A DNA stretch of 34,065 bases, taken from the NCBI GenBank assembly GCA_023261465.1, contig JAHFOW010000001.1, positions 1 to 34,065 of the forward strand, read 5' to 3'. This document shows positions 4,341 to 34,065 of this stretch, one piece after another. Position numbers and translations under genes: made by a program. The DNA comes from Planctomycetota bacterium (GTDB lineage Bacteria; Planctomycetota; Brocadiia; Brocadiales; Brocadiaceae). The number at the start of each line of letters is the position of its first letter. Position 1 is the first letter of the stretch. The notes beneath the pieces were generated by a model, which saw only the letters and a list, made by a program, of their open reading frames with translations, had not been told where the DNA came from and did not search any database.

Positions 4341-4417
4341 AGGTAAAAAATAAGTCTGAGGCTATAGGTTACGACCCTACAACCTCGGTGTTCAAACAAA
4401 CCTGATAGGTGAATTAT

Positions 4418-4942
4418 ATGAACGTACGTAGTTTATCGCATAACTATGAAGAAAATCAAGACAGTTTGTCATGGATTGACGACCCCTTTAATCTTAAAGG
4501 TGCTTTTACAGGAGTAAAACAAGTGAGCCATCAGCGAAATCTAACCGATTACGCGGAGAATCTGGTATCCCATTACGGAAAATATCAGGATGACCAGTAT
4601 GCGCTTTACCTTGAAATGCTTCCGGATGATGAGCAAAACGAGCTTGCACGCCTTTATATAGAATCCATAGACCGTGAAATAGAGTACGCCTGTTATGGGC
4701 GGGATGAGTCCATAAACAGCGACTTTCTGTGCTCTATGCTTGCCATGCTTAAAGATAACAACCAGGAAAAGCAGATTTCTTTTGCTGAGACAACGCGCAA
4801 AAACATTATTTCTTATTACAAAAAATCCCTCAATGCCATCCTTCAAAATGCCTGCGATATTTTTCATCGTTTGCAGATGCATCACGATGGTTATGCCTAT
4901 GAGGACTCCGAGGACGGCGATGTTATATGGGGAGGATTTTAA
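4418..4942 (+). CDS. Hypothetical protein (174 aa)
   Basis: The track ORF begins at GTG 4409. The ATG at 4418 has an AGGTG Shine-Dalgarno 6 nt upstream. Confidence 0.6.
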   Translation: MNVRSLSHNYEENQDSLSWIDDPFNLKGAFTGVKQVSHQRNLTDYAENLVSHYGKYQDDQYALYLEMLPDDEQNELARLYIESIDREIEYACYGRDESINSDFLCSMLAMLKDNNQEKQISFAETTRKNIISYYKKSLNAILQNACDIFHRLQMHHDGYAYEDSEDGDVIWGGF

Positions 4943-5178
4943 TGATTCATAAATTCAGCGCCTATGAGTATGAGCTTATTCAGGATGAGAATGGATGGTA
5001 TTACGTTATTTATGACACCGATTACACGCCCTGTGAGTCCACTGTGTCTTTTAAGGCAGAAGACCGCTTTGAATCTGAAAGTCAGGCGCGGTTTGCCGCC
5101 ATTGGACATATTGATTTTATTGAAAATGCAACCGAACTGGATGCGTTAGCTTTGTTAAAAATGGAGAAGATTGAATGA
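4942..5178 (+). CDS. Hypothetical protein (78 aa)
   Basis: The ATG at 4942 overlaps the upstream stop (TAATG), and GGAGG lies 6 nt upstream. The ATG at 4927 sits inside that Shine-Dalgarno sequence. Confidence 0.6.
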   Translation: MIHKFSAYEYELIQDENGWYYVIYDTDYTPCESTVSFKAEDRFESESQARFAAIGHIDFIENATELDALALLKMEKIE

Positions 5179-5276
5179 TTATGAAAGATAAGATTACGGC
5201 AAAAGAGCGATTAGATTTTAAGAAGCCACGCAAATGGCTTTGGTTTAAATAATTAATAAGATGTGAGGCAGTAAAA

Positions 5277-6122
5277 ATGGCATTAAAAGCAAAGAAACCC
5301 GCGATGATTGAGTCCCGTTTAAAGGCGTTGTTCTATGGAAATGCGGGTGTCGGTAAAACGATGGCAGCTATTCAGTTTCCTAAGCCCTATATCATTGATA
5401 CGGAGGGCTCCACGAACAAGCCTCAGTATGTAAAAGCTATTGATAAAGTGGATGGCGCGGTACTTATGACCGTAGACTTTGATGAAATGGTGAATGAGGT
5501 TCGCGAGCTTTTAACGACTAAGCACGAATACAAAACTCTTGTGATTGATTCGTTGACGTTGCTTTACAACGACCTTCTTGAGAAGGCTGAGCGAAAGGTT
5601 GGGACGGATTTTGGCCGTCATTACGGAGAAGCAAACAAACGCATGAAACAACTCCTGAACCTCTTATTCAGACTTGACATGAACGTTATTATTACTTCCC
5701 ACAGTAAAAATGAATACGGCCAAAACCTGGCAATTCTAGGACAAACCTTTGATTGTTACAAGAAGCTTGATTATCTATTTGACCTTGTGTTTGAGATTCA
5801 AAAGCGAGGGGTTCATCGAGTGGGTTTGGTCAAGAAATCAAGGATTGAATCTTTCCCTGATGGAGAGAGTTTTCCCTTTTCTTACGAAGAGATTGCAAAA
5901 CTCTACGGCCGTCACATCCTAGAGCGTGAAGCGGTCGCACAGGAATTAGCAACCGTTGAGCAGGTCAAAGAAATTACGCGCTTGATTGACTTACTGAAAG
6001 TTCCAGAAGAAACCTTTCAAAAGTGGCTGGACAAGGCCACCTCTGAAAGCTGGCAGGACATGCAAAAGGACTCAATACAAAAATGTATTGATCATCTCAC
6101 CTCAAAGATTAAAGGAGAATAA
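5277..6122 (+). CDS. Sak4-like RecA-core ATPase (AAA_24 type)
   Basis: It has a Walker A motif GNAGVGKT, a Walker B-like LVIDSL, and the size and layout typical of phage Sak4/AAA_24 proteins. Confidence 0.7.
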   Translation: MALKAKKPAMIESRLKALFYGNAGVGKTMAAIQFPKPYIIDTEGSTNKPQYVKAIDKVDGAVLMTVDFDEMVNEVRELLTTKHEYKTLVIDSLTLLYNDLLEKAERKVGTDFGRHYGEANKRMKQLLNLLFRLDMNVIITSHSKNEYGQNLAILGQTFDCYKKLDYLFDLVFEIQKRGVHRVGLVKKSRIESFPDGESFPFSYEEIAKLYGRHILEREAVAQELATVEQVKEITRLIDLLKVPEETFQKWLDKATSESWQDMQKDSIQKCIDHLTSKIKGE

Positions 6123-6124
6123 AA

Positions 6125-6598
6125 ATGTTCCAATATGAAGTTTTATCAGAGCAAGAAGCAATGGCTGAGCGTTTCCAGTTGCTTAAAGACGGTGAATACG
6201 AGGGTGTTATTACGTCCTCAAAGGACGCTATGTCCTCCAAAGGAAGTCCAATGATGGATATGATTGTGAGTGTTTATGATGAAAATGGAAAGTGCCATGA
6301 GGTTCGGGATTTTCTGGTTTTCACAAAACCCATGATGTGGAAGGTTGTGCACTTTGCCGACTCTGCAAACGTTTCAAAAGAATACGAAGCGGGGAAACTT
6401 TGCTCTGAAGTGGTTCTTAATAAACGCGTTATGGTTAAAGTGGGCATAGAAAATGGTGGAGAAATTCCCGCAGATAAGTTAAAAGGTAAACCCGCTGGCA
6501 CAAGGTACTTTGATAAGAACAGGATTGAAGATTATTTAAAGAAAGGAGAGCAAGAAAGTGTGCCTGCTTTTGAAGACGATGACGTGCCATTTTTATGA
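6125..6598 (+). CDS. DUF669-like protein with an SSB-type acidic C-terminal tip (putative ssDNA-binding partner of Sak4)
   Basis: It lies immediately downstream of the Sak4-like gene. Its C-terminus FEDDDVPFL resembles the bacterial SSB tip DDDIPF. Confidence 0.55.
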   Translation: MFQYEVLSEQEAMAERFQLLKDGEYEGVITSSKDAMSSKGSPMMDMIVSVYDENGKCHEVRDFLVFTKPMMWKVVHFADSANVSKEYEAGKLCSEVVLNKRVMVKVGIENGGEIPADKLKGKPAGTRYFDKNRIEDYLKKGEQESVPAFEDDDVPFL

Positions 6599-6616
6599 CG
6601 GAAAGGGATATATACC

Positions 6617-6997
6617 ATGAATTTTAATGAGGCGGTATTAAGGCTGAAGGCTGGAGAAAAAATAACAAGAGAGCCGTGGGCCAATGAGCTTTACTTCCAG
6701 ATGAAAGAAGGACGAGTCGTATGCTATCAGCCGATGTTAGATCATTACCCATACACCGACGACATAATGGTCTCAGAGGGATGGATTGTAGAGGATAAAA
6801 TGGATTTTCCAATGCCATTTTCAGAAATCATACCCATGCTTTTGGAGGGGAAAAAGGCGCGCATGTTTGATTGGGAATTTTCTTACATTTATTTGGATAA
6901 AGAAACCAGGGGGCTTTTGTTGCATAGAATGACTGAGCTGCCTTTTGCCCCAAGTTTTAATGACTTTACAGCAGAAGATTGGCAGGAAATAGCCTGA
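6617..6997 (+). CDS. DUF2829 (Tad2-like) domain protein (126 aa)
   Basis: The N-terminus MNFNEAVLRLKAGEKITREPW matches the DUF2829 signature as recalled (F.eAl.alk.Gkk..R..W). An AAGGGA Shine-Dalgarno is present. Confidence 0.55.
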   Translation: MNFNEAVLRLKAGEKITREPWANELYFQMKEGRVVCYQPMLDHYPYTDDIMVSEGWIVEDKMDFPMPFSEIIPMLLEGKKARMFDWEFSYIYLDKETRGLLLHRMTELPFAPSFNDFTAEDWQEIA

Positions 6998-7027
6998 TTT
7001 ATGGAAATCGCCATTAAGGAATAATGA

Positions 7028-7444
7028 ATGAGTGAACTCAAAATTGATGAAGATTACCTGCTGGAATTCGCAGAAGGTATTTCTTTGTTTATTAAAAGAG
7101 TGCTGGTAGATAAGAATGTAATATGTGATAAGAACGCTGATATATTTCTTCGATACATGGCCTTTGTAAGGGTGTACGGTTATTTAGAGGCGCACACAAC
7201 TATTACCCAGGCATTACAAGATGCATTTTGTTTTGGTCGCTCCTCATGCCATGAAGTATTTAAAACTAAGATGTATGGAGATCTGGGTTGGGACAATGAT
7301 AAATCCATTCATGACAACCCATTCTTTATACAAGAAGAAGTATGCCCTGAGGCACTAAAGGAAGCTGATAAGCTTTCAGAAGAATTAAAAAACTTCCTTA
7401 AAATCGTCCAAGACAAGAAATCAACCAATGAAACCACGCACTAA
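7028..7444 (+). CDS. Hypothetical protein (138 aa)
   Basis: ORF with an AAGGA Shine-Dalgarno, in operon context. Confidence 0.6.
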   Translation: MSELKIDEDYLLEFAEGISLFIKRVLVDKNVICDKNADIFLRYMAFVRVYGYLEAHTTITQALQDAFCFGRSSCHEVFKTKMYGDLGWDNDKSIHDNPFFIQEEVCPEALKEADKLSEELKNFLKIVQDKKSTNETTH

Positions 7445-7459
7445 AAAGGGAGGCAAAAA

Positions 7460-7777
7460 ATGATTGAATGCAAGGAATGCAGGGATTATGCCGATATTAT
7501 TTTTGAACGCGGAGAAATAACAGCGGATGAGATTCCTAAGCTTGTATACGACCGTCATGCTTTAAAAGCCTGTGACAAAAAAGATTCGCCATTTTTATAC
7601 TGGCTGGAATTTGCTATTCTGAATCAGCGCGAAATAGACAAGGAGCACAACCCGTTTCCTTTGCCTCATTGGAATAAAGGGTACCTTGAAGCATTACTGG
7701 ATTGCCGGGAAAGATATATTGCGCCTCATGATTCCGAAACATCAGTAAGTGGTTTCAATAAGACCGCTGGAAGATAA
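7460..7777 (+). CDS. Hypothetical protein (105 aa)
   Basis: ORF with a GGGAGG Shine-Dalgarno. Confidence 0.6.
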   Translation: MIECKECRDYADIIFERGEITADEIPKLVYDRHALKACDKKDSPFLYWLEFAILNQREIDKEHNPFPLPHWNKGYLEALLDCRERYIAPHDSETSVSGFNKTAGR

Positions 7778-7791
7778 AAGGAAGATTATAT

Positions 7792-8091
7792 ATGAAGAAT
7801 GTAGATTTTCTGGACTACGTATTTACACTTGAAACACTGGTTGATGACAATAACTGCATGTCTTTATTTTTAAAATGCAGACACAAGGATTATACGCGAT
7901 CGGTAAGATGTCAGCTAATGAACGAAGAATTACACTCATTTGGAAATGCCGCAATTTATGGATTCATGAATATACTAAAAGACAAGCTAAACAGCATCTT
8001 AATTAAAGAAGGGCTGTTAACAGTAAATGTTAGTAAGCCTAAAGTCATACCGATACATAGTAAAACATTGTATAAAGTTGAGGAAAAATGA
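7792..8091 (+). CDS. Hypothetical protein (99 aa)
   Basis: ORF with an AAGGAAG Shine-Dalgarno. Its stop overlaps the next start (ATGA). Confidence 0.6.
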   Translation: MKNVDFLDYVFTLETLVDDNNCMSLFLKCRHKDYTRSVRCQLMNEELHSFGNAAIYGFMNILKDKLNSILIKEGLLTVNVSKPKVIPIHSKTLYKVEEK

Positions 8092-8303
8092 TTGAACTTA
8101 CCAGGGAAGAATTGGTTTGGCTTGAAGAACATCTGCGATTTACTCTTCAGCATTATATCCAGCCTCAAATTGTAGTCAAAGTTCACAAGAAAATCCAACT
8201 GATGCTGGAAAGCCATTGTGATCATGAATTTAAAAAAACTCTTGATAAATCAGAAAATTATTTCATTTCAGAGTGTCGTAAATGCAAGAAGGTGGAATCA
8301 TGA
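8088..8303 (+). CDS. Small CxH...CxxC protein, paralog family member A
   Basis: LTREEL...KKIQLMLESHCDHEF...CRKCKK aligns with the products of 8511..8747 and 11055..11282. Confidence 0.6.
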   Translation: MIELTREELVWLEEHLRFTLQHYIQPQIVVKVHKKIQLMLESHCDHEFKKTLDKSENYFISECRKCKKVES

Positions 8304-8521
8304 ATATATACACAAAGGCATGGGAATGCCCAAGGTGTCGCAGATGGCATAGCCCTTCAAGCGAAAAATGCGATTGCAAGCCCATTAAACACGATTATTG
8401 TCCTGAGTGTTTAGCAGATGCTTTTGCAATATTGAGCCCCCCTTATCCAAGTCTTGATGTGATTGAAGCTTATGCGGCGACCCTACATAAAGATATAAGA
8501 CACAGAGAAAATGATGAATGA
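8300..8521 (+). CDS. Small zinc-ribbon protein (73 aa)
   Basis: The ATG at 8300 overlaps the upstream TGA, and AAGGTGGA is the Shine-Dalgarno. Cysteine motifs are CPRC...CDC...CPEC. Confidence 0.55.
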   Translation: MNIYTKAWECPRCRRWHSPSSEKCDCKPIKHDYCPECLADAFAILSPPYPSLDVIEAYAATLHKDIRHRENDE

Positions 8522-8747
8522 TTTTACTAAGGAAGAGCTGGAGGGAATGTTAACGGTGGCCGATTCCTTTTTGGCTAGAGGCATTGCAATTTATAGTGAG
8601 AAAATTACTAATAAAATCCAATCCATGATCGATACTCACTGTACTCATGCATGGATGTATAATCCGTATCAAGATGACGGAAAGAGGCTTTGCGTAAAAT
8701 GTAGGGCTTGTAAAATTAGTAATTCGCAATTGGATGTATTGAAATGA
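8511..8747 (+). CDS. Small CxH...CxxC protein, paralog family member B
   Basis: FTKEEL...NKIQSMIDTHCTHAW...CVKCRAC. Confidence 0.6.
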   Translation: MMNDFTKEELEGMLTVADSFLARGIAIYSEKITNKIQSMIDTHCTHAWMYNPYQDDGKRLCVKCRACKISNSQLDVLK

Positions 8748-8908
8748 AAATCAGTAGAAAACGATGCCCTTGTCAGAATCTTGCGCTGCCAAGGTGGGAT
8801 ATTTATATTTGTGATGAATGCGGGAAGCAACTTGCGTCTCTTCCAAATCCTATTTATCCATCTATGGCGCAAAAAATTATTACAAAGATAAAGAGAATTA
8901 TAAAATGA
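8744..8908 (+). CDS. Unlisted small zinc-ribbon ORF (54 aa)
   Basis: My own translation gives MKISRKRCPCQNLALPRWDIYICDECGKQLASLPNPIYPSMAQKIITKIKRIIK. It has ATGA overlaps at both ends (8744-8747 and 8905-8908). It falls below the track length cut-off. Confidence 0.5.
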   Translation: MKISRKRCPCQNLALPRWDIYICDECGKQLASLPNPIYPSMAQKIITKIKRIIK

Positions 8909-9120
8909 TATATGATGCAAAATACACTGAAATTAAAGAAATGGAAAAGCAAATTAAAAGCTATAATCTTTTTATTACCGGTGATTGGATGACTTGGAAT
9001 GGGCCAGATTTACCAGAAACCCCTATGTTTACAAAAGAAGAAATAGAAGAAATGGAAAAAGAATTGTCGTTATTAGAGAAAAGATTGAACTTAATGAAAC
9101 AAGGTTTTTCATTGCATTAA
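8905..9120 (+). CDS. Hypothetical protein (71 aa)
   Basis: I prefer the internal ATG at 8905 (MIYDAKYTEIKEMEKQ...) because it is ATGA-coupled to 8744..8908. The longer track ORF would overlap that gene. Confidence 0.5.
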   Translation: MIYDAKYTEIKEMEKQIKSYNLFITGDWMTWNGPDLPETPMFTKEEIEEMEKELSLLEKRLNLMKQGFSLH

Positions 9121-9134
9121 TTAAAGGAAATTGA

Positions 9135-9383
9135 ATGACTATAAAGCCTCCAGACAACCTTCAACTTATAATAAGGTGCCCAACTTACTCTGAATATCCA
9201 GAACCACCGGAAAATCAATCCCCCTGTGAATTATTTGATTGCCCTAAATGTAAATCAAAGATGTGGCTTTCTCAGCGAAACAAAGGGCAGCTTCTCTTTC
9301 ACTCGTGCCTTAATACCCAAATAATTCTAGGGTGCTATAAGTGCCTTACGAAGGAAATCAATGAACCCAAAGCCTCCAGATAA
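9135..9383 (+). CDS. Small zinc-ribbon protein (82 aa)
   Basis: Cysteine motifs are CPKC...CYKC. An AAAGGAAA Shine-Dalgarno is present. Confidence 0.55.
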   Translation: MTIKPPDNLQLIIRCPTYSEYPEPPENQSPCELFDCPKCKSKMWLSQRNKGQLLFHSCLNTQIILGCYKCLTKEINEPKASR

Positions 9384-9519
9384 ATCCCTACCAGCCCCAA
9401 AGGAAGAACCATCCTATTTCGCCTCTTTCGATTACCTGTTCTTTGGAAGGCTGGATGAGCTTACAAATCCTCAGAAACCTAAGCCTAAAGAAAGACGTAT
9501 TAAATGCAGCCCCCGATAA
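9361..9519 (+). CDS. Possible small ORF (52 aa)
   Basis: My own translation gives MNPKPPDKSLPAPKEEPSYFASFDYLFFGRLDELTNPQKPKPKERRIKCSPR. An AAGGAA Shine-Dalgarno lies 4 nt upstream. The N-terminus echoes MTIKPPDNLQ of 9135..9383. Confidence 0.35.
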   Translation: MNPKPPDKSLPAPKEEPSYFASFDYLFFGRLDELTNPQKPKPKERRIKCSPR

Positions 9520-9729
9520 TCATCTTGGCTTAAACATCTGATTGAAATATTCCGGAGTCCAATCTTTGCGTTCATCCTGCTGCATCAGCGTCAGAATTTC
9601 CTGCATTGCGAATATGTAGCCCATGGCAAAAGCCCTTGTAGTTGGAGGGGTATCAAGGGTCATATCATCCACTTCTTTAATAATAACGTCTCTTTTGTTG
9701 CGAATAGTTTCTTGTATTTTTTGCTGCAT
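9520..9729 (-). CDS. Hypothetical protein (69 aa) encoded antisense to the early operon
   Basis: The track ORF starts at TTG 9777. The ATG at 9729 lies downstream of a minus-strand promoter-like TTGTCA (9785-9780), a 16-nt spacer and TAAAAA(T) (9763-9757). Confidence 0.45.
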   Translation of the reverse strand: MQQKIQETIRNKRDVIIKEVDDMTLDTPPTTRAFAMGYIFAMQEILTLMQQDERKDWTPEYFNQMFKPR

Positions 9730-9830
9730 ACTATAATCACCAGGATAAATACCGGTATTTTTACATTTAATAATCAATGTGACAATAAAAAAGATTGTAA
9801 TTTAACGATATATAATCAAGGAGAACATCT

Positions 9831-9986
9831 ATGCATTGGTTAAAAGTAATATCTATTTCTTTAAGATTTTTTTCTATAAGCGCGATATTTGCGGTGATAT
9901 CTAATCACATCAATTTCTCCCACTGGGAAATGTGTGTCTTATCATTTGGAATTGGTTTTTTATTCATGCCAAACAGGAAAAATTAA
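9831..9986 (+). CDS. Unlisted small hydrophobic ORF (51 aa)
   Basis: My own translation gives MHWLKVISISLRFFSISAIFAVISNHINFSHWEMCVLSFGIGFLFMPNRKN. An AAGGAGAA Shine-Dalgarno lies 6-7 nt upstream. Confidence 0.45.
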   Translation: MHWLKVISISLRFFSISAIFAVISNHINFSHWEMCVLSFGIGFLFMPNRKN

Positions 9987-9989
9987 ATC

Positions 9990-10202
9990 ATGAAGTGGTA
10001 TTCGGTTAAGGATTATAAAGTACCAGCAAACATGGGAATGCTATTCGTTGCCTTGTCCATTGAGAATCTTTGCATTTATAAGATATGCGAATATAAGCAT
10101 AACCTAAAAACAGATGAATTTAGCTGGTTTGATGAACAAGGATACACTAGCAGTCAGGTAACCCACTTCTGTATTCCAGACCCAATAGAGATTGAAGAAT
10201 GA
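9990..10202 (+). CDS. DUF551-like protein (70 aa)
   Basis: The N-terminus MKWYSVKDYKVP parallels MKWISVKERLPE of 10477..10746. Confidence 0.5.
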   Translation: MKWYSVKDYKVPANMGMLFVALSIENLCIYKICEYKHNLKTDEFSWFDEQGYTSSQVTHFCIPDPIEIEE

Positions 10203-10480
10203 AATTATTTGCTGTTGGAGATAGATGCTGGACATTTTTTACCTACTTAAGTGGAAAGTGCACATTAGACGCTTTTAGCCTAAAAACTTTTTGGATTGAA
10301 CCATGGGAAATTTTAAATATTAAAGAAGGTGACCGTCATAATCGTGCATTAAAAATATTCACATTAAAAAATATACGGGAATGGGTAAATCCGCGCGATG
10401 TTTTATCTGACTGTTGTTATCAATCTAAAGAAGCAGCGATAGGGGCTATGCGTAGAAAACTAAAGGAATTTGAAGAATGA
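10199..10480 (+). CDS. Hypothetical protein (93 aa)
   Basis: The ORF is ATGA-coupled at both ends. Confidence 0.55.
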   Translation: MKLFAVGDRCWTFFTYLSGKCTLDAFSLKTFWIEPWEILNIKEGDRHNRALKIFTLKNIREWVNPRDVLSDCCYQSKEAAIGAMRRKLKEFEE

Positions 10481-10746
10481 AATGGATAAGCGTTAAAGAA
10501 AGATTGCCAGAACACCAACAAATAGTATTGGTTTTTGCAAAGACTCAAAGAGGGACTGATGGTTATGGCGTGGCAACTTTTGTCAACTCTCATAAAATGA
10601 ATGAAGAATTAAAAAATGGACCTTATGCCAACGAGTGTGTTGATCTGAAAAAAAATCCTTATTTTTTTTGTTCCCAAGAGGTGAAACGGCATACATTCAA
10701 TAATGTTTCCCATTGGATGGTTTTACAAAAACCCCTATGCAAATAA
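10477..10746 (+). CDS. DUF551 domain protein (89 aa)
   Basis: MKWISVKERLPE...VSHWMVLQKP has the classic DUF551 termini as recalled. Confidence 0.6.
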   Translation: MKWISVKERLPEHQQIVLVFAKTQRGTDGYGVATFVNSHKMNEELKNGPYANECVDLKKNPYFFCSQEVKRHTFNNVSHWMVLQKPLCK

Positions 10747-10816
10747 GGTACACCCTTTGGGTCTCTCAAGAACCAGTCAATAAACCCCCTGAATATAATT
10801 ATTTTTATAACCTTTA

Positions 10817-10844
10817 TGGACAAGTATTCAAAAGGTGATATGAT
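10817..10844 (+). promoter_or_regulatory. Sigma70-like promoter feeding the structured element
   Basis: TGGACA (10817-10822), a 16-nt spacer, then TATGAT (10839-10844). The predicted start is near 10851. Confidence 0.5.
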
Positions 10845-10849
10845 TGTGC

Positions 10850-11018
10850 TATGACAATCGCGGCGTGGACAGTGACACGCGCCAGAGACTATAGAATCTG
10901 GATTAACAAGGCAGGTCTATAGCGGTATGAATGATGCCGATGTATAGAGAACGAAACATTCTAGTCCTCTTTGGTAGCGACAGTTAATGAGCAGGTGCAA
11001 TTCCTGCCGATTGTCATA
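10850..11018 (+). other. GC-rich ORF-free element bounded by an inverted repeat. It is a candidate structured ncRNA or leader, or a candidate invertible segment.
   Basis: TATGACAATCG (10850-10860) is perfectly complementary to CGATTGTCATA (11008-11018). Internal hairpins lie at 10863-10880, 10882-10901 and 10991-11007. No ORF is plausible, and the flanks are AT-rich. Confidence 0.4.
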
Positions 11019-11054
11019 AACTACTAAATTGGTAGACATCGTTAGGTAATTGTT

Positions 11055-11282
11055 ATGAGCGATTTTACAAAAGAAGAACTCACAAAAATAAAAGATGGAT
11101 TAAACAGTAGTAACGCGCGAACTAGTCCAGATTTAGACAAAATTCTATATAAAATAAATAATCTCATAGGAAATTATTGTGATCACCATTATTTGCGTAT
11201 GAGTAAAATGCAATGGCATATATGTACGGACTGCTTAAATCCATTTAATCTTTCAAAAAAAGAGCAATTGAATAATGATTAA
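11055..11282 (+). CDS. Small CxH...CxxC protein, paralog family member C
   Basis: FTKEEL...YKINNLIGNYCDHHY...CTDC aligns with the products of 8088..8303 and 8511..8747. Confidence 0.6.
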   Translation: MSDFTKEELTKIKDGLNSSNARTSPDLDKILYKINNLIGNYCDHHYLRMSKMQWHICTDCLNPFNLSKKEQLNND

Positions 11283-11291
11283 TTTAAAGAA

Positions 11292-11882
11292 ATGAGCCAT
11301 CAGGTTATTGGCTACGTACGTGTATCATCACAGGGACAAAATACGGCCAGACAATTATCAGGGATAGAATTAGATATGGAATTTGTAGACAAGATTACAG
11401 GAAGCACAGCTGACCGAGAGAAATTACAGCAATGTATCGCGTATGCTCGAAAGGGCGATACGGTTATTGTAGATAGTATCGATAGATTGGCGCGAAATTT
11501 GCGTGACCTTCAGGATATTCTTACCAAGCTTACTACTAAAGGCGTGATAGTTAAATTTGTAAAAGAAAATCTTGTTTTCACGGGTAATGATGATGCTATG
11601 TCTACACTTATGTTACAGATGATGGGCGCTTTTGCGGAATTTGAGCGAACTATGATTAAAAGTCGGCAGCGAGAAGGTATCGATGCTGCTAAGAAAGCGG
11701 GAAAGCATATGGGTCGTCCAAAAAAAGTAACGCCTGAATTATCCTTAGATGTTGTAAGGCTTAGTTCGGAAGGAAAAAGCATTCGTGCAATAGCAAAAGA
11801 GGTAGATCTTGGGCGCTCTACGGTTCAAAGAATACTAGGGACAAAGGTCTCTGCTCAAAAAACAAGAGAGGTAATATGGTAA
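11292..11882 (+). CDS. Small serine recombinase (resolvase/invertase family, 196 aa)
   Basis: The N-terminal catalytic motif is IGYVRVSSQGQ. It also has DSIDRLARN and GAFAEFER, and a C-terminal HTH (SIRAIAKEVDLGRSTVQRIL). Domain order and size match gamma-delta resolvase and Hin. Confidence 0.85.
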   Translation: MSHQVIGYVRVSSQGQNTARQLSGIELDMEFVDKITGSTADREKLQQCIAYARKGDTVIVDSIDRLARNLRDLQDILTKLTTKGVIVKFVKENLVFTGNDDAMSTLMLQMMGAFAEFERTMIKSRQREGIDAAKKAGKHMGRPKKVTPELSLDVVRLSSEGKSIRAIAKEVDLGRSTVQRILGTKVSAQKTREVIW

Positions 11883-12166
11883 TGGCTAATCAAAGAGACA
11901 TGATTTCAAGCGAAGAGGCTCGAATTATGTTGTTAGAGCAAAAGAATGATGATTTTCATCAGACTTTAATTCGTCTTGAATCCATCTTGGATTCAATGGA
12001 TAAAAAGTTTGAAACCAAATTTGATGGGATAGATAAAAAATTCGATTCTCAGAACGCTAAAATCGACTCCCATTTCAAATGGACCATAACATTGTTTCTG
12101 GGCCTCTATGGAACCGTAGTTGGCACGCTTATCACGGCATTGGGCAAAGCGTATCATTGGTTTTAA
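11876..12166 (+). CDS. DUF1640-like coiled-coil protein with a C-terminal transmembrane helix (96 aa)
   Basis: Repeated KKFETKFDGIDKKFDSQNAKIDSHFKW is followed by the hydrophobic segment TITLFLGLYGTVVGTLITALG. The start overlaps the recombinase stop (ATG 11876 or 11882). Confidence 0.55.
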   Translation: MVMANQRDMISSEEARIMLLEQKNDDFHQTLIRLESILDSMDKKFETKFDGIDKKFDSQNAKIDSHFKWTITLFLGLYGTVVGTLITALGKAYHWF

Positions 12167-12372
12167 TGCTAACCATTCCATGTAAGCCATAGGTAGAAAA
12201 ATAAAACATTGCGCCTGAGATCCTCATTTTGTAAGATGGCGTTCTTTTAATCATGAGAACTCACAATTGCGATTTTACGTTGAAGGTCTTGAGCTGGATA
12301 TTCAAGATCCAACATTCTTTATGGACGAAGAGGAGTACAAAAATTTAAATCAAACTTTAGATGGGATTTTAA

Positions 12373-12612
12373 ATGACTACTATGACCTACCATTGGATAA
12401 ATAAGCCCAAGGCGCGATTTTATAGAATTACAATGAAAGGTAATGGATCTAATATCTTACTTAATTACCAATGGGGTTCGATTATGTCTAATCGCGGTGG
12501 GAAGAAAAGCTTATTGTTGTGCTCAGAACAGGAAGCAAAGAGCACCATTGAACAGATGATAAAACGCAGGAAAAGCAGGGGTTATGAATTATTATTCCCC
12601 ACTATACACTGA
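12373..12612 (+). CDS. Stand-alone WGR-domain protein (79 aa)
   Basis: ARFYRITM...LNYQWGSI..RGGKKSLLLCSEQEAKSTIEQMIKRRKSRGY fits the WGR signature (FY.i, W-G-R/S-I-G, ..KGY). The Shine-Dalgarno is weak and the start is uncertain. Confidence 0.6.
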   Translation: MTTMTYHWINKPKARFYRITMKGNGSNILLNYQWGSIMSNRGGKKSLLLCSEQEAKSTIEQMIKRRKSRGYELLFPTIH

Positions 12613-12780
12613 CGGCTCTTCTGTAGGTTCTGAAATCCTTTGGATAGCCTGTTCAGTAGCAAAAATAGCACCAATTAACTGTTGCAAATTTGCTTGAGCC
12701 TGATCTCGACGAACCATGAAATTCTGCAAATCGGATTTCAATTGTTCTAAAGGGCTCAATTCCTTTTTTTCTTCAGACAT
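12592..12780 (-). CDS. Hypothetical coiled-coil protein (62 aa), last gene of the late operon
   Basis: GGAG Shine-Dalgarno lies 8 nt upstream. The 3' end overlaps the convergent WGR gene by 21 nt. Confidence 0.55.
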   Translation of the reverse strand: MSEEKKELSPLEQLKSDLQNFMVRRDQAQANLQQLIGAIFATEQAIQRISEPTEEPSVYSGE

Positions 12781-12920
12781 TTAATAACTCCATGTTATAA
12801 TAATTCAGATGGGTATATCACATTTAATGTTACGCATCAATTACTTAACAGTTTATATGTAAAACATTTATTGCAGTTGATTTATTTTGGACTGAATATA
12901 AATTGCTTTCGGTATCCTTA

Positions 12921-13136
12921 TCAAACAGAAGGGGGCAATTGATCGGCCCTTAGAATTTGATTCCACACTAATGCGTTTTGATCGCTGTTATCATTGCATA
13001 TATATAAATCACCATTGGTATTATCTAAATACAATTGGCCAAGCTCGATTGTTACTAATATGGATAAATAACTTGCAGCAGGCGCGCCTGAATCCTGAAA
13101 CATCGCAGGTATTGTGTTTGTCACTGAAAAAGTCAT
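12921..13136 (-). CDS. Hypothetical fibre-associated protein (71 aa)
   Basis: An AAAGGAGA Shine-Dalgarno is present, 18 nt after the fibre gene stop. Confidence 0.6.
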   Translation of the reverse strand: MTFSVTNTIPAMFQDSGAPAASYLSILVTIELGQLYLDNTNGDLYICNDNSDQNALVWNQILRADQLPPSV

Positions 13137-13154: not shown

Positions 13155-15014
13155 TTATCGCCTTCTTCGAGCACTTAATGTTCCATAACCCAATCCCGTT
13201 CCGCTGAATGCAGAAAACACTGACATGTAAACTGTCACTGTTCCTGCTGTACTGACTCGAAGAGGAGGGCATGTCAGACCATACATATTTCCGGTCTGAC
13301 CTACAACAAAAGACCTTAATGCTCTGTCTGGCAAAGTTACAGAGCTTAGAGAAGTCCAGCATTGAAAAGTTGAAAGGCTTACTGTAGCTTCTCCTGAGGC
13401 ATTCGCTATAATGTCCCAGTCCCCGGCGGTTAATGAAATACTGGTGATATCCACGGAGGCCGAACTTGATAGCGAGACACCGGAGGCTGCAAGTATTGTG
13501 CTTGTAACATACTCCCCAACACTTCCTGCGGCTGCATTATTATTCGTGGTCGTTCCGATAACCCCTGATGTTGAATTAAAGGTCACGCTGGGCAAAGTTA
13601 TTCCGGCACCTATCGTGTTTCCGATACTTGGAACCCCCCCGGACGATGTAACCAATATCCCATTATTGGCCGTAGCAAGAGCTCCCATTACATTCGCGGA
13701 AGACGCATAAAGCAAAGTGTTCACTGCATTGGTTGCGGGATATGTTGAAGTAGACCAGCTTGGAGCGGCAGCGGCATTCGATCGTAAAAGATTTCCTGTT
13801 GTCCCTGGGCCCGCAAGAATTGACGGAACACCTGTATTGCTTGTTACGGGCAATCCATTATTGGCGGTTGCCAATCCGGAGACCGTATTCCCAGTCGCCG
13901 AATACCAGGCCAATTGATTGACTGTGCCGTTAGACACAATACCGCTTCCGCCATCATAAATATAAGTCGCATTCCAAACCGCTGCGGTTGTTCCAGTATT
14001 AAGGATAGAAGATAACCACAATGTAGTATTGGCCGCCATGGTTGCAATCAGGTTACCGCCGGAAGAATTGACCGTAACGGCCAGCGTTGAATTATTGATA
14101 ATCATGAAGGATTGACTGTAACCCGCTTTAAAAGTCGAAACAACTGGCAGGGTAATGGTTTGGGTCAAGGATCCTGTGACCTGCTGAATTTGTGAACTAG
14201 CTGCCGTTAAAACCGTATTTCCACCGGCCGATACAATATTGGTTATTGAAGGCGAAAACGATTGCGCATACATCTGTCGTGTAGCAATGACCTGCTGACT
14301 GCTGTTAATGGTTAAAACAGGTGCAGAAAGCCCTGTACCTGCTTCATTATTGGTATAAAATTGCATACTTGCTGGAATTGCGCCATTGGATACCACCCCT
14401 TCGACTTCAACTAATATTTGTGCGCCAGGGGTCCCGTAGTCGCTTCCATCATCGGCATTCCAAGTTATATAACCTAGATCGTCGGTATCGGTAACGGCTG
14501 CAAATGCACCGATTGTTGGGCTTCTGGATTTTACGAATATTAAGTTTGGAGGCGCAGCATTGTTAATAAAAGAACATAAATATTGAGAAACGGGATTATT
14601 TTGTTTTGCTATTACTACACTGCTGACGGAATTATCTATCGACGTAGTATTTACCCCAGTTAAGAGATTTATACATCCAATGCCATCAGGAACAATATTG
14701 AGAGTTCCATTAGCATTGATTGAAGAAAGTGTATTGCCATCCAGCCTGAGATTGTCAACTTGAAGACTTCCAGTGATGACTTCATTTCCTGCGCCATCGG
14801 ATATGAACCCTGAATCTCCACCAAAAACGCCACCATTATTATATTGTACCGAGCCGTTCGGGGCTCCTGGGGCTATCGATGCTTGGAACAAGGCCAAAAC
14901 TTGCGTTAATGATATTTTTCTAGTGACAGGGCCTGGTAACTGGTCAGCCGGAAAGACGTCACTTAACTGTGCAGATGCGGCAGCGGGTAACGCTGAAATT
15001 TTTATTCCTGGCAT
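13155..15014 (-). CDS. Tail fibre protein (619 aa)
   Basis: The N-terminus MPGIKISALPAAASAQLSDVFP is typical of phage fibre anchors. The composition is G/S/T/N/A-rich. An internal repeat is visible: LATANNGLPVTSNTGVPSI and LATANNGILVTSSGGVPSI. Confidence 0.75.
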   Translation of the reverse strand: MPGIKISALPAAASAQLSDVFPADQLPGPVTRKISLTQVLALFQASIAPGAPNGSVQYNNGGVFGGDSGFISDGAGNEVITGSLQVDNLRLDGNTLSSINANGTLNIVPDGIGCINLLTGVNTTSIDNSVSSVVIAKQNNPVSQYLCSFINNAAPPNLIFVKSRSPTIGAFAAVTDTDDLGYITWNADDGSDYGTPGAQILVEVEGVVSNGAIPASMQFYTNNEAGTGLSAPVLTINSSQQVIATRQMYAQSFSPSITNIVSAGGNTVLTAASSQIQQVTGSLTQTITLPVVSTFKAGYSQSFMIINNSTLAVTVNSSGGNLIATMAANTTLWLSSILNTGTTAAVWNATYIYDGGSGIVSNGTVNQLAWYSATGNTVSGLATANNGLPVTSNTGVPSILAGPGTTGNLLRSNAAAAPSWSTSTYPATNAVNTLLYASSANVMGALATANNGILVTSSGGVPSIGNTIGAGITLPSVTFNSTSGVIGTTTNNNAAAGSVGEYVTSTILAASGVSLSSSASVDITSISLTAGDWDIIANASGEATVSLSTFQCWTSLSSVTLPDRALRSFVVGQTGNMYGLTCPPLRVSTAGTVTVYMSVFSAFSGTGLGYGTLSARRRR

Positions 15015-18066: not shown

Positions 18067-18245
18067 ATTCACATTCCTTGTGATAATTAAATCATTATTT
18101 ATACAAATAATGCTTGTTATTTGTCCACGAAATGCATTAATATGCATTTTTTAAAATCAATTGGTCCTCTTATGATCGAGTCTTTACTAACCTTATTTTT
18201 CATATACAACATTATTCAAATCTTTATCCAAAAAGACGTGGAATT

Positions 18246-19154
18246 TTAATCCGGTTTCATCATTACTAATTTTTTAAAAAGGTCTATTAATGCATTTTTT
18301 GGCAAAGCATATGCACCGCCTGCAATCGCTAATGCATTACGATAGGGCTTAAATTTCATGTAACGTCTGTAGTCATCCTGTCCTCTGGTTAGTAGGTCTG
18401 CTATATCTTCATGACCTTCTTTTCTTAAAGACTGTTTCATTTCATCAAGAATATTTCCTCTAACCTGAAGTCCTGCTCTTCCATGTGCTCTATTGGCTTT
18501 AGAGAACCAATCCTTAGATAATCCACCGGCATGTTTTCCCAGGTCCGATTGTAAGTCAAATAAACGATTATAATCCCCGTAACCTGCGTCATTTATTAAA
18601 TTGCGATAAGGTGTTGTATTAGGGAAAAATTGTCGCGTATCTTCTATTAAATCTGGATTGACTTCTAAGGGGGCAATGTTTTTCTCTCTACCAATTTCGC
18701 GTGCCTTTTGTAAATTCCTGCTTGCTCCGCGTCTGGCAAGGTAGGGCAGCAACTTCATACCTCGTAATGCATTTAGACCCATCAAAACATCCGGACCATA
18801 TTCGAAGCTTTTTTGAACAACATAATCCGTGGGAGTATTTTCACCGGGATTTCTAAACACATTTTGATAATCAGCTGTATCTTTCGGAATATAATTAGAA
18901 ATATTTTGTCTTTTTCTTGGCATTCCTGGCAACACATCAAAAGCACTCCCAATGCCTTGGATTGATTTTTCAAGGCTACTGACAATATCATGGGGTAAGT
19001 TATGTAAATTACGACCTGCATGCGTTAGGCCTACCCCAATATTTGGCAACAATTTTCCAAGAAATGACTCTGGTTCGCTCGACGTATTTTCAAATAAATC
19101 TCGTGGCGCCCTTGGTGTTGATGTATCGTTTGAAGCAAAGAGGTCTTTAGCCAT
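18246..19154 (-). CDS. Internal virion / ejection-like protein (302 aa)
   Basis: Called from its position between the Q/G-rich proteins and the fibres. The start overlaps the upstream stop. No specific motif was recognised. Confidence 0.45.
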   Translation of the reverse strand: MAKDLFASNDTSTPRAPRDLFENTSSEPESFLGKLLPNIGVGLTHAGRNLHNLPHDIVSSLEKSIQGIGSAFDVLPGMPRKRQNISNYIPKDTADYQNVFRNPGENTPTDYVVQKSFEYGPDVLMGLNALRGMKLLPYLARRGASRNLQKAREIGREKNIAPLEVNPDLIEDTRQFFPNTTPYRNLINDAGYGDYNRLFDLQSDLGKHAGGLSKDWFSKANRAHGRAGLQVRGNILDEMKQSLRKEGHEDIADLLTRGQDDYRRYMKFKPYRNALAIAGGAYALPKNALIDLFKKLVMMKPD

Positions 19155-33833: not shown

Positions 33834-34065
33834 CTAAGGAACCAGTTCAAAGTGGACTAAATCATTCAGCATGCCAGGTTTATTGAGCCTTCCAAGACCA
33901 TCCCATGCCCCACCCCATCGAACGTCGTGTTGAATGAATCCATGGGCTTTCATGACACAAGAGCTACCCAGCACAAAACCTGCGAACACTCGCAATTGCT
34001 TTTCGTTACTAAAATCAAGTGGAAATGGGGCAGCATCAACCGCCATGGAAGGATAGGTATTGTGT
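33834..34065 (-). CDS. Endolysin (M15 peptidase), 3' part. It is the same gene as 1..302 read across the junction.
   Basis: The frame of track ORF 33834..34046 continues upstream to the window end. Bases 33946-34065 duplicate bases 1-120. Confidence 0.8.
   Translation of the reverse strand, partial: HNTYPSMAVDAAPFPLDFSNEKQLRVFAGFVLGSSCVMKAHGFIQHDVRWGGAWDGLGRLNKPGMLNDLVHFELVP
33946..34065. repeat. Second copy of the 120-bp terminal repeat
   Basis: Identical to bases 1-120. Confidence 0.95.

Follow-up and report, generated by a model that had tools for sequence, protein, structure and literature searches.

Which task a small serine recombinase performs in a temperate-type phage with no recognisable integrase is the question raised by positions 11055-12612 of the DNA analysed here, a stretch of 34,065 nucleotides (the window) that is one whole contig of a 2.83-Mb metagenome-assembled genome (MAG). 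Bases 1-120 are identical to bases 33946-34065, an exact 120-bp overlap of the contig ends, and the window is therefore a closed phage genome of 33,945 bp. The phage is complete (33.9 kb), of temperate type and lambda-like in its gene order. A plus-strand early operon (4409-12612) encodes, besides many small proteins, a Sak4-like annealase and an SSB-like protein. The minus strand leads from the replication initiator and helicase loader through the XRE regulator and the endolysin, whose gene spans the contig ends, to the packaging, head and tail genes and finally to the tail fibres, which end at 13155. Since the plus-strand operon and the minus-strand late genes meet here, the 11055-12612 block sits at the convergence of transcription, in the place that int, attP and the b region occupy in lambda.

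An earlier note, made from the sequence alone, had placed four plus-strand open reading frames (ORFs) in this block, and all four were confirmed at 11055-11282 (75 aa), 11292-11882 (196 aa), 11876-12166 (96 aa) and 12373-12612 (79 aa). It had described the last three, encoding a recombinase, a membrane protein and a WGR protein, as a gene trio forming one module, and had proposed multimer resolution, a DNA-inversion switch or a superinfection-exclusion or defence function for it. Our data break the 1.56-kb block up into accessory units that lie in a row and are independent of one another, which is at odds with a single module, and lead us to favour tentatively, with somewhat less than even confidence, a role of the recombinase as a resolvase for multimers of the phage genome.

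The recombinase and its closest relatives

The 196-aa product of the gene at 11292-11882 (plus strand) was matched by the Pfam profiles Resolvase (1.4e-37) and HTH_7 (1.6e-9, residues 141-182, a helix-turn-helix domain, HTH), and its best PHROG was phrog_125, labelled 'DNA invertase' (1e-59). In the alignment, Y8, R10, S12, D64, R65, R68, E118 and R125 are invariant in 36/36 sequences and R119 is kept in 35/36. On this profile and alignment evidence, the protein is a small serine recombinase with intact catalytic residues. A weak match of its HTH to a small-terminase PHROG (phrog_1482, 2.6e-5) was also recorded. As the earlier note had stated, it is the only recombinase: it gives the sole PF00239 match in the whole MAG, so that no large serine integrase is present, and the tyrosine integrase profile PF00589 has no match on the contig.

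Among solved structures, the recombinase is equally distant from Sin, Gin and the Tn3 and gamma-delta resolvases. Its identity to Tn1721 TnpR, which is carried on P1-like phages, is 46-47%, and values of about 50% are reached with plasmid tnpR or 'recombinase family' genes from several phyla and with the 'resolvase domain' genes of mycobacteriophages, all three being its best annotated matches; for TnpR of Tn1721/Tn21 type and plasmid resolvases together, the identity spans about 47-52%. Gin, Cin, the Fels-2 invertase and phiRSM1 ORF14 lie at 31-33% (33% for phiRSM1 ORF14), and NCBIfam gave no informative match, its Mpi model scoring 63.8 with a cut-off of 272. In a maximum-likelihood tree of 36 sequences, the phage lineage of the window forms its own clade (99/98), nested in a clade supported at 100/99 with Tn1721 TnpR, plasmid tnpR and gp92 of mycobacteriophage Sejanus, and Gin, Cin, the Fels-2 invertase and phiRSM1 ORF14 are separated from all other sequences at 100/99. 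Both phiSG1 gp36 and phiRSM1 ORF14 are on long branches, and their placement is therefore less safe. In Sejanus, a gene with the annotation RepA-like replication initiator is found at a distance of about 2.6 kb from the homologue, and the annotation of phiSG1 gp36 names a possible Tn21-like resolvase and a similarity to a pSG3 gene. The TnpR proteins of Tn21, Tn1721 and Tn501 and their relatives on plasmids have the same two-domain architecture and size as the window recombinase, and the blocks GYVRVSS, DRLARN and LVFTG.D..M..LML..MGAFAEFER are common to it and Tn1721 TnpR. Profiles, tree and alignment thus place the protein on the Tn21/Tn1721 TnpR-like resolvase branch.

The earlier note had considered that the gene could prove to be a transposon resolvase flanked by transposon ends. 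The tree does put the protein in the TnpR clade, but no transposase accompanies it (the Tn3 transposase profile DDE_Tnp_Tn3 has zero matches anywhere in the MAG) and its flanks are phage genes in a kept order. Unlike tnpR of the Tn3 family, which is part of a transposon, the window gene adjoins neither tnpA, transposon ends nor a recognisable three-part res, and it is a phage accessory gene at a fixed position. As there is no transposase and the gene order is kept across the lineage, an insertion of the recombinase gene by a transposon was ruled out.

In the subgroup of the window, the recombinase is the final conserved gene of the plus-strand early operon, where lambda has int. In a second phage group (related loci L015-L018), its place is at or shortly before the large terminase gene, after which comes the portal gene. 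The portal of the L015 type is only 23% identical to that of the window, hence the recombinase gene is common to different phage groups and is not tied to one genome plan; an inversion of the late module between the two types was rejected for the same reason. In L015, where the recombinase is at 6001-6588, a 520-aa ORF begins 22 nt before its stop codon. The earlier note's view of these genes as accessory is borne out by L036 (record G047), a 96%-complete relative which has neither a resolvase nor a tyrosine integrase and which keeps the WGR cassette. The recombinase is dispensable in the lineage.

A row of independent accessory units

The proposal of a module was not upheld, the complete trio being found together in this window alone. 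The recombinase and the WGR cassette occur together in 8 of about 14 recombinase-bearing relatives; the WGR gene is present without the recombinase in L036, L037 and L038, and the recombinase without the WGR gene in L015-L019. In the subgroup, the gene order after the recombinase is a variable slot, a promoter-like block, a 45-aa ORF, the WGR gene and then the convergent late genes. The slot directly 3' of the recombinase is empty in L014 and L029, contains the 96-aa membrane protein gene in the window and genes for a zinc-ribbon protein and a 76-80-aa protein in L010-L012, with other genes in L011 and L121, and the slot genes often overlap the recombinase stop codon. The membrane protein is thus variable-slot cargo. 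A Cys-rich protein of 47-62 aa (MTKECKHEFHAINPFQRICCNCNK...) is encoded in the slot in L009-L013 (e.g., L010:6557-6745), and several relatives show a 23-nt overlap of its gene with the recombinase stop.

In order, the block comprises a predicted promoter with a tRNA-like RNA leader, a 75-aa zinc-ribbon-like paralogue, the recombinase, a coupled XhlA-like membrane protein and a 45-aa/WGR bicistron with its own predicted promoter, the site 3' of the recombinase being a swap-in slot for small cargo. The 75-aa protein (11055-11282, plus strand) has a CxH...CxxC pattern and belongs to a multi-copy early-gene family. It had been called a paralogue of two core early genes; the similarity to the genes at 8511-8747 and 8088-8303 is present but weak, with 37.5% across 48 aa (E 1e-4) and 27% (E 0.012), and family members are found in relatives both with and without the recombinase. 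The greater AT-richness noted for the block holds relative to the late genes (GC of 0.370 vs 0.444) but not relative to the remainder of the early operon (0.385), and the composition is therefore no mark of foreign origin.

Candidate recombination sites and possible roles of the recombinase

Multimer resolution is, of the three roles proposed in the earlier note, the best fit to the sequence affinity of the recombinase, which groups at 100/99 with Tn1721 TnpR and plasmid resolvases and apart from Gin and Cin. Such a resolvase would recombine directly repeated copies of a phage site and convert circular dimers or multimers into monomers; the multimers could come from theta replication or from a plasmid-like carrier state, helped by the Sak4/SSB recombination system of the phage, and the HTH of the recombinase may also repress a promoter. 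The resolution reaction, its site and all physiological roles are inferred. Several observations weigh against this role. No res-like site was identified for the recombinase among the candidates set out below. A branch of the tree does not strictly fix function, the gene occupies the classical int position in a phage without other integrase, and the near-complete relative L036 does without it. Phages that package concatemers have no obvious need for a resolvase. Partition genes, which the earlier note had also reported missing, were not recognised (zero ParB_N and AAA_31 ParA profile matches on the contig), which leaves a stable plasmid-prophage state hypothetical. It is because of the missing site, the missing partition genes and the int position that the resolvase role is held at less than even confidence.

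Candidate sites were searched around the gene. The non-coding control region 10744-10849 contains a palindrome, TAAGGTACACCC, beginning at the stop codon of the DUF551 gene. A pair of CAGTCAAG-like repeats in tandem and a tract rich in AT are also present, as is a promoter covered by a dyad. The promoter, a promoter-like site TGGACA-16-TATGAT found by promoter scan at 10810-10844 (plus strand), heads the recombinase sub-operon and is overlapped by the dyad ACCTTT-N15-AAAGGT, which occurs once in the window vs 0.04 times expected by chance and is conserved in L009-L013, L029 and L104. The half-site AAGGT/ACCTT is common to both dyads. The motifs are conserved in only part of the lineage; those at 10744-10836 track neither the recombinase nor its HTH, since they are unchanged while the recognition helix of the recombinase changes, are missing from relatives with the same helix and are absent from several recombinase-bearing relatives, which adds to the points against the resolvase role. 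The upstream dyad operator was rejected as res on the same lack of co-variation and on its absence from L014-L020. As there is no co-variation with the recombinase HTH, the dyads are probably operators of another regulator. In L121, CAGTCAAG-like repeats lie directly upstream of the recombinase.

A scan for repeated motifs, in which the immunity operators at 569-678 were recovered as a positive control, gave clusters at 11901-12017, inside the membrane-protein gene, and at 12836-12943, in intergenic DNA; both are specific to the window and kept in no related locus, which again does not speak for a resolvase site. Three dyads at 13216-13347, in the 3' end of a tail-fibre gene and with TGTCAG-like half-sites, were rejected as they arise from G-Q-T/G-L-T codons. 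Conservation is also lacking in L013 and L036, although both have this fibre domain.

Immediately downstream of the promoter-like site, a perfect 11-bp inverted repeat encloses the 169-nt segment 10850-11018, which has a fold z-score of -3.4 on the plus strand. The ends of this element are conserved around a variable core in L015 (5163-5317) and L036 (2888-3034), with the same orientation relative to the upstream flank, and its 3' hairpin resembles a T-arm followed by an acceptor strand. A pattern scan recovered 13 full copies in viral contigs (L129, L136, L147, L151, L156, L160, L163, L172, L190, L205, L214, L219 and L221), with compensatory changes in both hairpins, e.g., GCAGG/CCTGC, GCCGG/CCGGC, ATCGG/CCGAT and GCACG/CGTGC. 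For the majority of copies, the surrounding DNA that was retrieved contains no recombinase; the element is present in the recombinase-less genome and absent from most recombinase-bearing relatives. Fold, conservation and compensatory changes argue that the segment is a tRNA-like structured RNA gene or leader, with the 11-bp repeat as its predicted closing stem, and not a recombination substrate; as an invertible segment it was rejected, on the compensatory changes in the 13 copies and on its occurrence being decoupled from the recombinase.

In this tRNA-like family, a conserved 5' strand ATGACAATCG and a hairpin GCGTG..CACGC come first. They are followed by a variable core, about 40-140 nt long, by a hairpin that resembles a T-arm and has the loop TGCAATT, and then by CGATTGTCA. 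In L214, tRNA-like D-arm and T-arm sequences were seen in the core, by eye only, and the family was recognised neither by Rfam nor by ARAGORN. In other relatives, ARAGORN reported 'tRNA-???' genes of 85-88 nt whose variable arm is long and whose anticodon, 'taga', has four bases (L018:4543-4630, L019:4654-4740 and L037:2904-2988). Those of L018 and L019 precede the recombinase, and that of L037 directly precedes the XhlA-like gene.

Several other roles could be considered for the recombinase. It could be the integrase of the phage and insert the circular phage DNA at a site in the host, on the model of ORF14 in the filamentous Ralstonia phages phiRSM. The gene is the last of the early-left operon, beside convergent tail-fibre genes, which is the int-attP place of lambda, and the phage has an XRE-type switch without a tyrosine or large serine integrase; phiRSM ORF14, likewise a small serine recombinase and the sole recombinase of a temperate phage, gives a precedent for a resolvase-sized integrase (PMC3816273). 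However, the window enzyme belongs to the TnpR-like clade, and ORF14 of phiRSM1, 33% identical, groups with the invertases on a long branch. The distribution of the gene also stands against integration. Recombinase relatives of 50-82% identity were found in viral and metagenomic contigs, the longest mostly of 32-37 kb, and more than 100 protein clusters at 60-82% identity are mostly on contigs of that size, which are phage-sized, free and not chromosomal. One identical recombinase is present on dozens of 32-37-kb contigs, and all of its 22 extra places (22/22) share their neighbours for 10 kb in both directions. Among 185,579 species, each represented by one genome, no homologue above 55% identity was detected, and in 46 other genomes of the family of the MAG the best match had 34% identity. 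In the search for attB, no phage segment, the tRNA-like element included, matched the MAG outside its own contig, and the matches in C256 were rejected as a scaffold-gap duplicate. No integrated copies and no att-like homology were thus found here, which sets the window phage apart from phiRSM, and the 96%-complete relative manages without any recombinase. Taken together, these data make an integrase improbable.

A DNA invertase acting in the manner of Gin or Cin on a tail-fibre segment, or on the 169-bp element upstream, is the least probable of the roles and in our view very unlikely. Like Gin of Mu and D108, Cin of P1 and the invertases of P2 and Fels-2, the window enzyme is a phage-carried small serine recombinase encoded near tail-fibre genes whose distal parts vary greatly among relatives, its best PHROG family has the label 'DNA invertase', and a perfect 11-bp inverted repeat surrounds 10850-11018. 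In contrast to these invertases, to which it is 31-33% identical and from which it is separated in the tree, it comes without crossover sites, an invertible segment or inverted alternative fibre ends. The gix/hix consensus had 0 matches with up to 3 mismatches allowed, and inverted-repeat searches with 8- and 11-nt seeds gave no pair flanking a segment near the gene and no long or high-identity pair around the tail-fibre segments, only short pairs of 70-89%. Comparison of about 30 related loci gave no minus-strand matches, therefore no segment is flipped in any of these assemblies and no inverted alternative fibre cassette was seen; the inversion switch of the earlier note found no support in these data. 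The element bounded by the inverted repeat, for its part, is a predicted RNA gene with the same orientation in L015 and L036. The last role to be weighed is that the recombinase mainly marks and maintains the cargo slot and forms, with its downstream gene, a mobile unit for superinfection-exclusion or anti-phage cargo, with the XhlA-like protein and the 45-aa/WGR pair adjoining. Different small genes do follow the recombinase stop in different relatives, and the XhlA-like protein adjoins the recombinase in three arrangements detected by a hidden Markov model (HMM) search, downstream of it in the window and upstream in L015 and L121, with a fourth, also upstream, in L119 that was recognised only by eye and in the alignment. 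A link between recombinase and defence genes has been described with an Enterococcus recombinase as bait (preprint 10.1101/2025.10.07.681051), but it is statistical, not mechanistic, and the bait is from Enterococcus. PADLOC matched 0/7 of the block proteins, and known defence domains are missing from the cargo genes. The recombinase is also found with an empty slot (L014, L029), and repeats of a kind that might delimit a mobile cassette were not detected. We regard this role as unlikely, and retain the resolution of phage multimers as the preferred one.

Some features of the fibre region were recorded in addition. Receptor-binding fibre ends differ widely among relatives. A 32-nt inverted repeat has its arms at 18125-18156 and 18271-18302, with 81% complementarity and a spacing of 114 nt. 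It is rich in AT and in part palindromic in itself (ATGCATATTAATGCAT), and it covers the start codon of a tail-fibre gene (565 aa) as well as the 3' end of the preceding gene. In L012 (7644-12116) and L104 (11644-16116), three tandem fibre genes (363, 364 and 751 aa) are on one strand, the first two being paralogues.

The membrane protein, the WGR pair and the late-gene boundary

The gene at 11876-12166 (plus strand) had been described as translationally coupled to the recombinase, and the sequence agrees: the recombinase stop is at 11880-11882, and the next ORF starts with an ATG at 11876 or 11882, preceded closely by the Shine-Dalgarno sequence AGAGAGG. The predicted coiled coil with a C-terminal transmembrane helix was also recovered, as a hydropathy peak at residues 65-90 in the window protein and, in the family, as a coiled coil followed by one C-terminal membrane helix. 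The assignment to DUF1640 is loose: 3 of the 22 members of the family match the CCDC90-like profile (former DUF1640, PF07798; best 7.8e-5), but the window protein itself has no match at E up to 1. The latter is below every Pfam cut-off, its matches being DUF2951 at 5e-4 and XhlA at E 0.26. Within the family, XhlA (PF10779) matches 13/22 members at E up to 0.01 (best 1.9e-8) and DUF2951 matches 5/22. In all members the N-terminus is conserved, the coiled coil varies in its number of KFD-type repeats and a single membrane helix follows, and the HMM search located one further homologue far from the recombinase, in L037. On family profiles and hydropathy, the window gene encodes a 94-96-aa tail-anchored coiled-coil membrane protein of XhlA/DUF2951/CCDC90-like type. 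It is like XhlA, a protein of the PBSX lysis cassette, and like the DUF2951 and CCDC90-like proteins in its size of about 90 aa, its N-terminal coiled coil and its one C-terminal membrane helix; it differs from XhlA in that its gene is not beside a holin or endolysin gene but follows the recombinase, the endolysin gene being about 11.5 kb away.

The identification of the 79-aa protein (12373-12612, plus strand) as a single WGR domain was confirmed by Pfam PF05406 (24.7 bits with a cut-off of 22, E 2.6e-5, residues 4-72). An AlphaFold2 (AF2) model has a pLDDT of 89 with five strands and one helix, and a Foldseek search with this model returned as top matches 2RA8 and the WGR domains of PARP1/2/3, with probability 1.00 and TM of 0.56-0.69 but E of about 1e-2. 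The protein ends in a basic KRRKSRGY motif. It had been presented as a solo phage WGR protein without an assigned role, which is true, but such mini-proteins are a common and already labelled class: a profile search gave 408 representative clusters, mostly of 70-110 aa, and in the ESM Atlas viral and proteobacterial clusters are already named WGR. With the stand-alone WGR mini-proteins of bacteria and phages, PARP1/2/3 and the Bacteroides fragilis protein 2RA8, the window protein has in common one WGR domain, 70-100 aa long, and its predicted fold. It differs in having no catalytic partner and in being encoded by the second gene of a conserved pair, with a promoter-like block of its own.

The first gene of this pair, missed in the earlier note, is a conserved ORF at 12267-12404 (plus strand) for an acidic protein of 45 aa (MRFYVEG...DIQDPTFFMDEEE). 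Its start codon, TTG, ATG or GTG, is at one fixed position, its substitutions follow a coding pattern with 46-71% identity among 11 relatives, and in all relatives its 3' end runs 8-32 nt into the WGR gene. A search of the ESM Atlas with the 45-aa protein gave sub-threshold leads only. A literature search on WGR proteins in phages returned nothing relevant, and in it the 45-aa/WGR pairing was not found described. The block at 12209-12237 (plus strand; TTGCGC-17-TAAGAT), the sole conserved non-coding block in an alignment of 13 relatives, would act as the promoter of the 45-aa/WGR pair. A GATC in its 17-nt spacer is kept in 11/13 of the aligned relatives (not in L037 and L038), which hints at a possible Dam-sensitive expression of the pair. 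The pair is predicted to be a DNA-binding accessory cassette. One could go further and see in it a new two-component phage system, possibly a protein binding DNA ends or nicks that is restrained or delivered by its acidic partner and that would serve superinfection exclusion, anti-defence or the protection of phage DNA ends, the recombinase marking a hot spot of cassette exchange; we consider this proposal speculative and its truth decidedly improbable.

The boundary with the late operon is formed by a gene for a 62-aa coiled-coil protein (12592-12780, minus strand), identified as an ORF, which is convergent with the WGR gene and overlaps its final 21 nt; homologues in L010, L011 and L029 are 44-51% identical. 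A promoter-like site of this gene is at 12924-12895. The 140-bp gap at 12781-12920 is not present in relatives, where the 62-aa gene abuts the tail-fibre gene, and it contains four GCAATTGAT-like motifs of alternating orientation.

Every component of the block belongs to a known protein class and current knowledge is not overturned. For screens by phage challenge, the XhlA-like cargo and the 45-aa/WGR pair would be inexpensive candidates. In the lineage to which the window belongs, uncultured temperate-type phages of 32-37 kb fill the int/attP slot of lambda with a TnpR-like resolvase and exchangeable small genes. If the recombinase does resolve phage multimers, these phages probably persist without integrating, which would bear on the way in which metagenomic phages lacking an integrase are classed as temperate or lytic.

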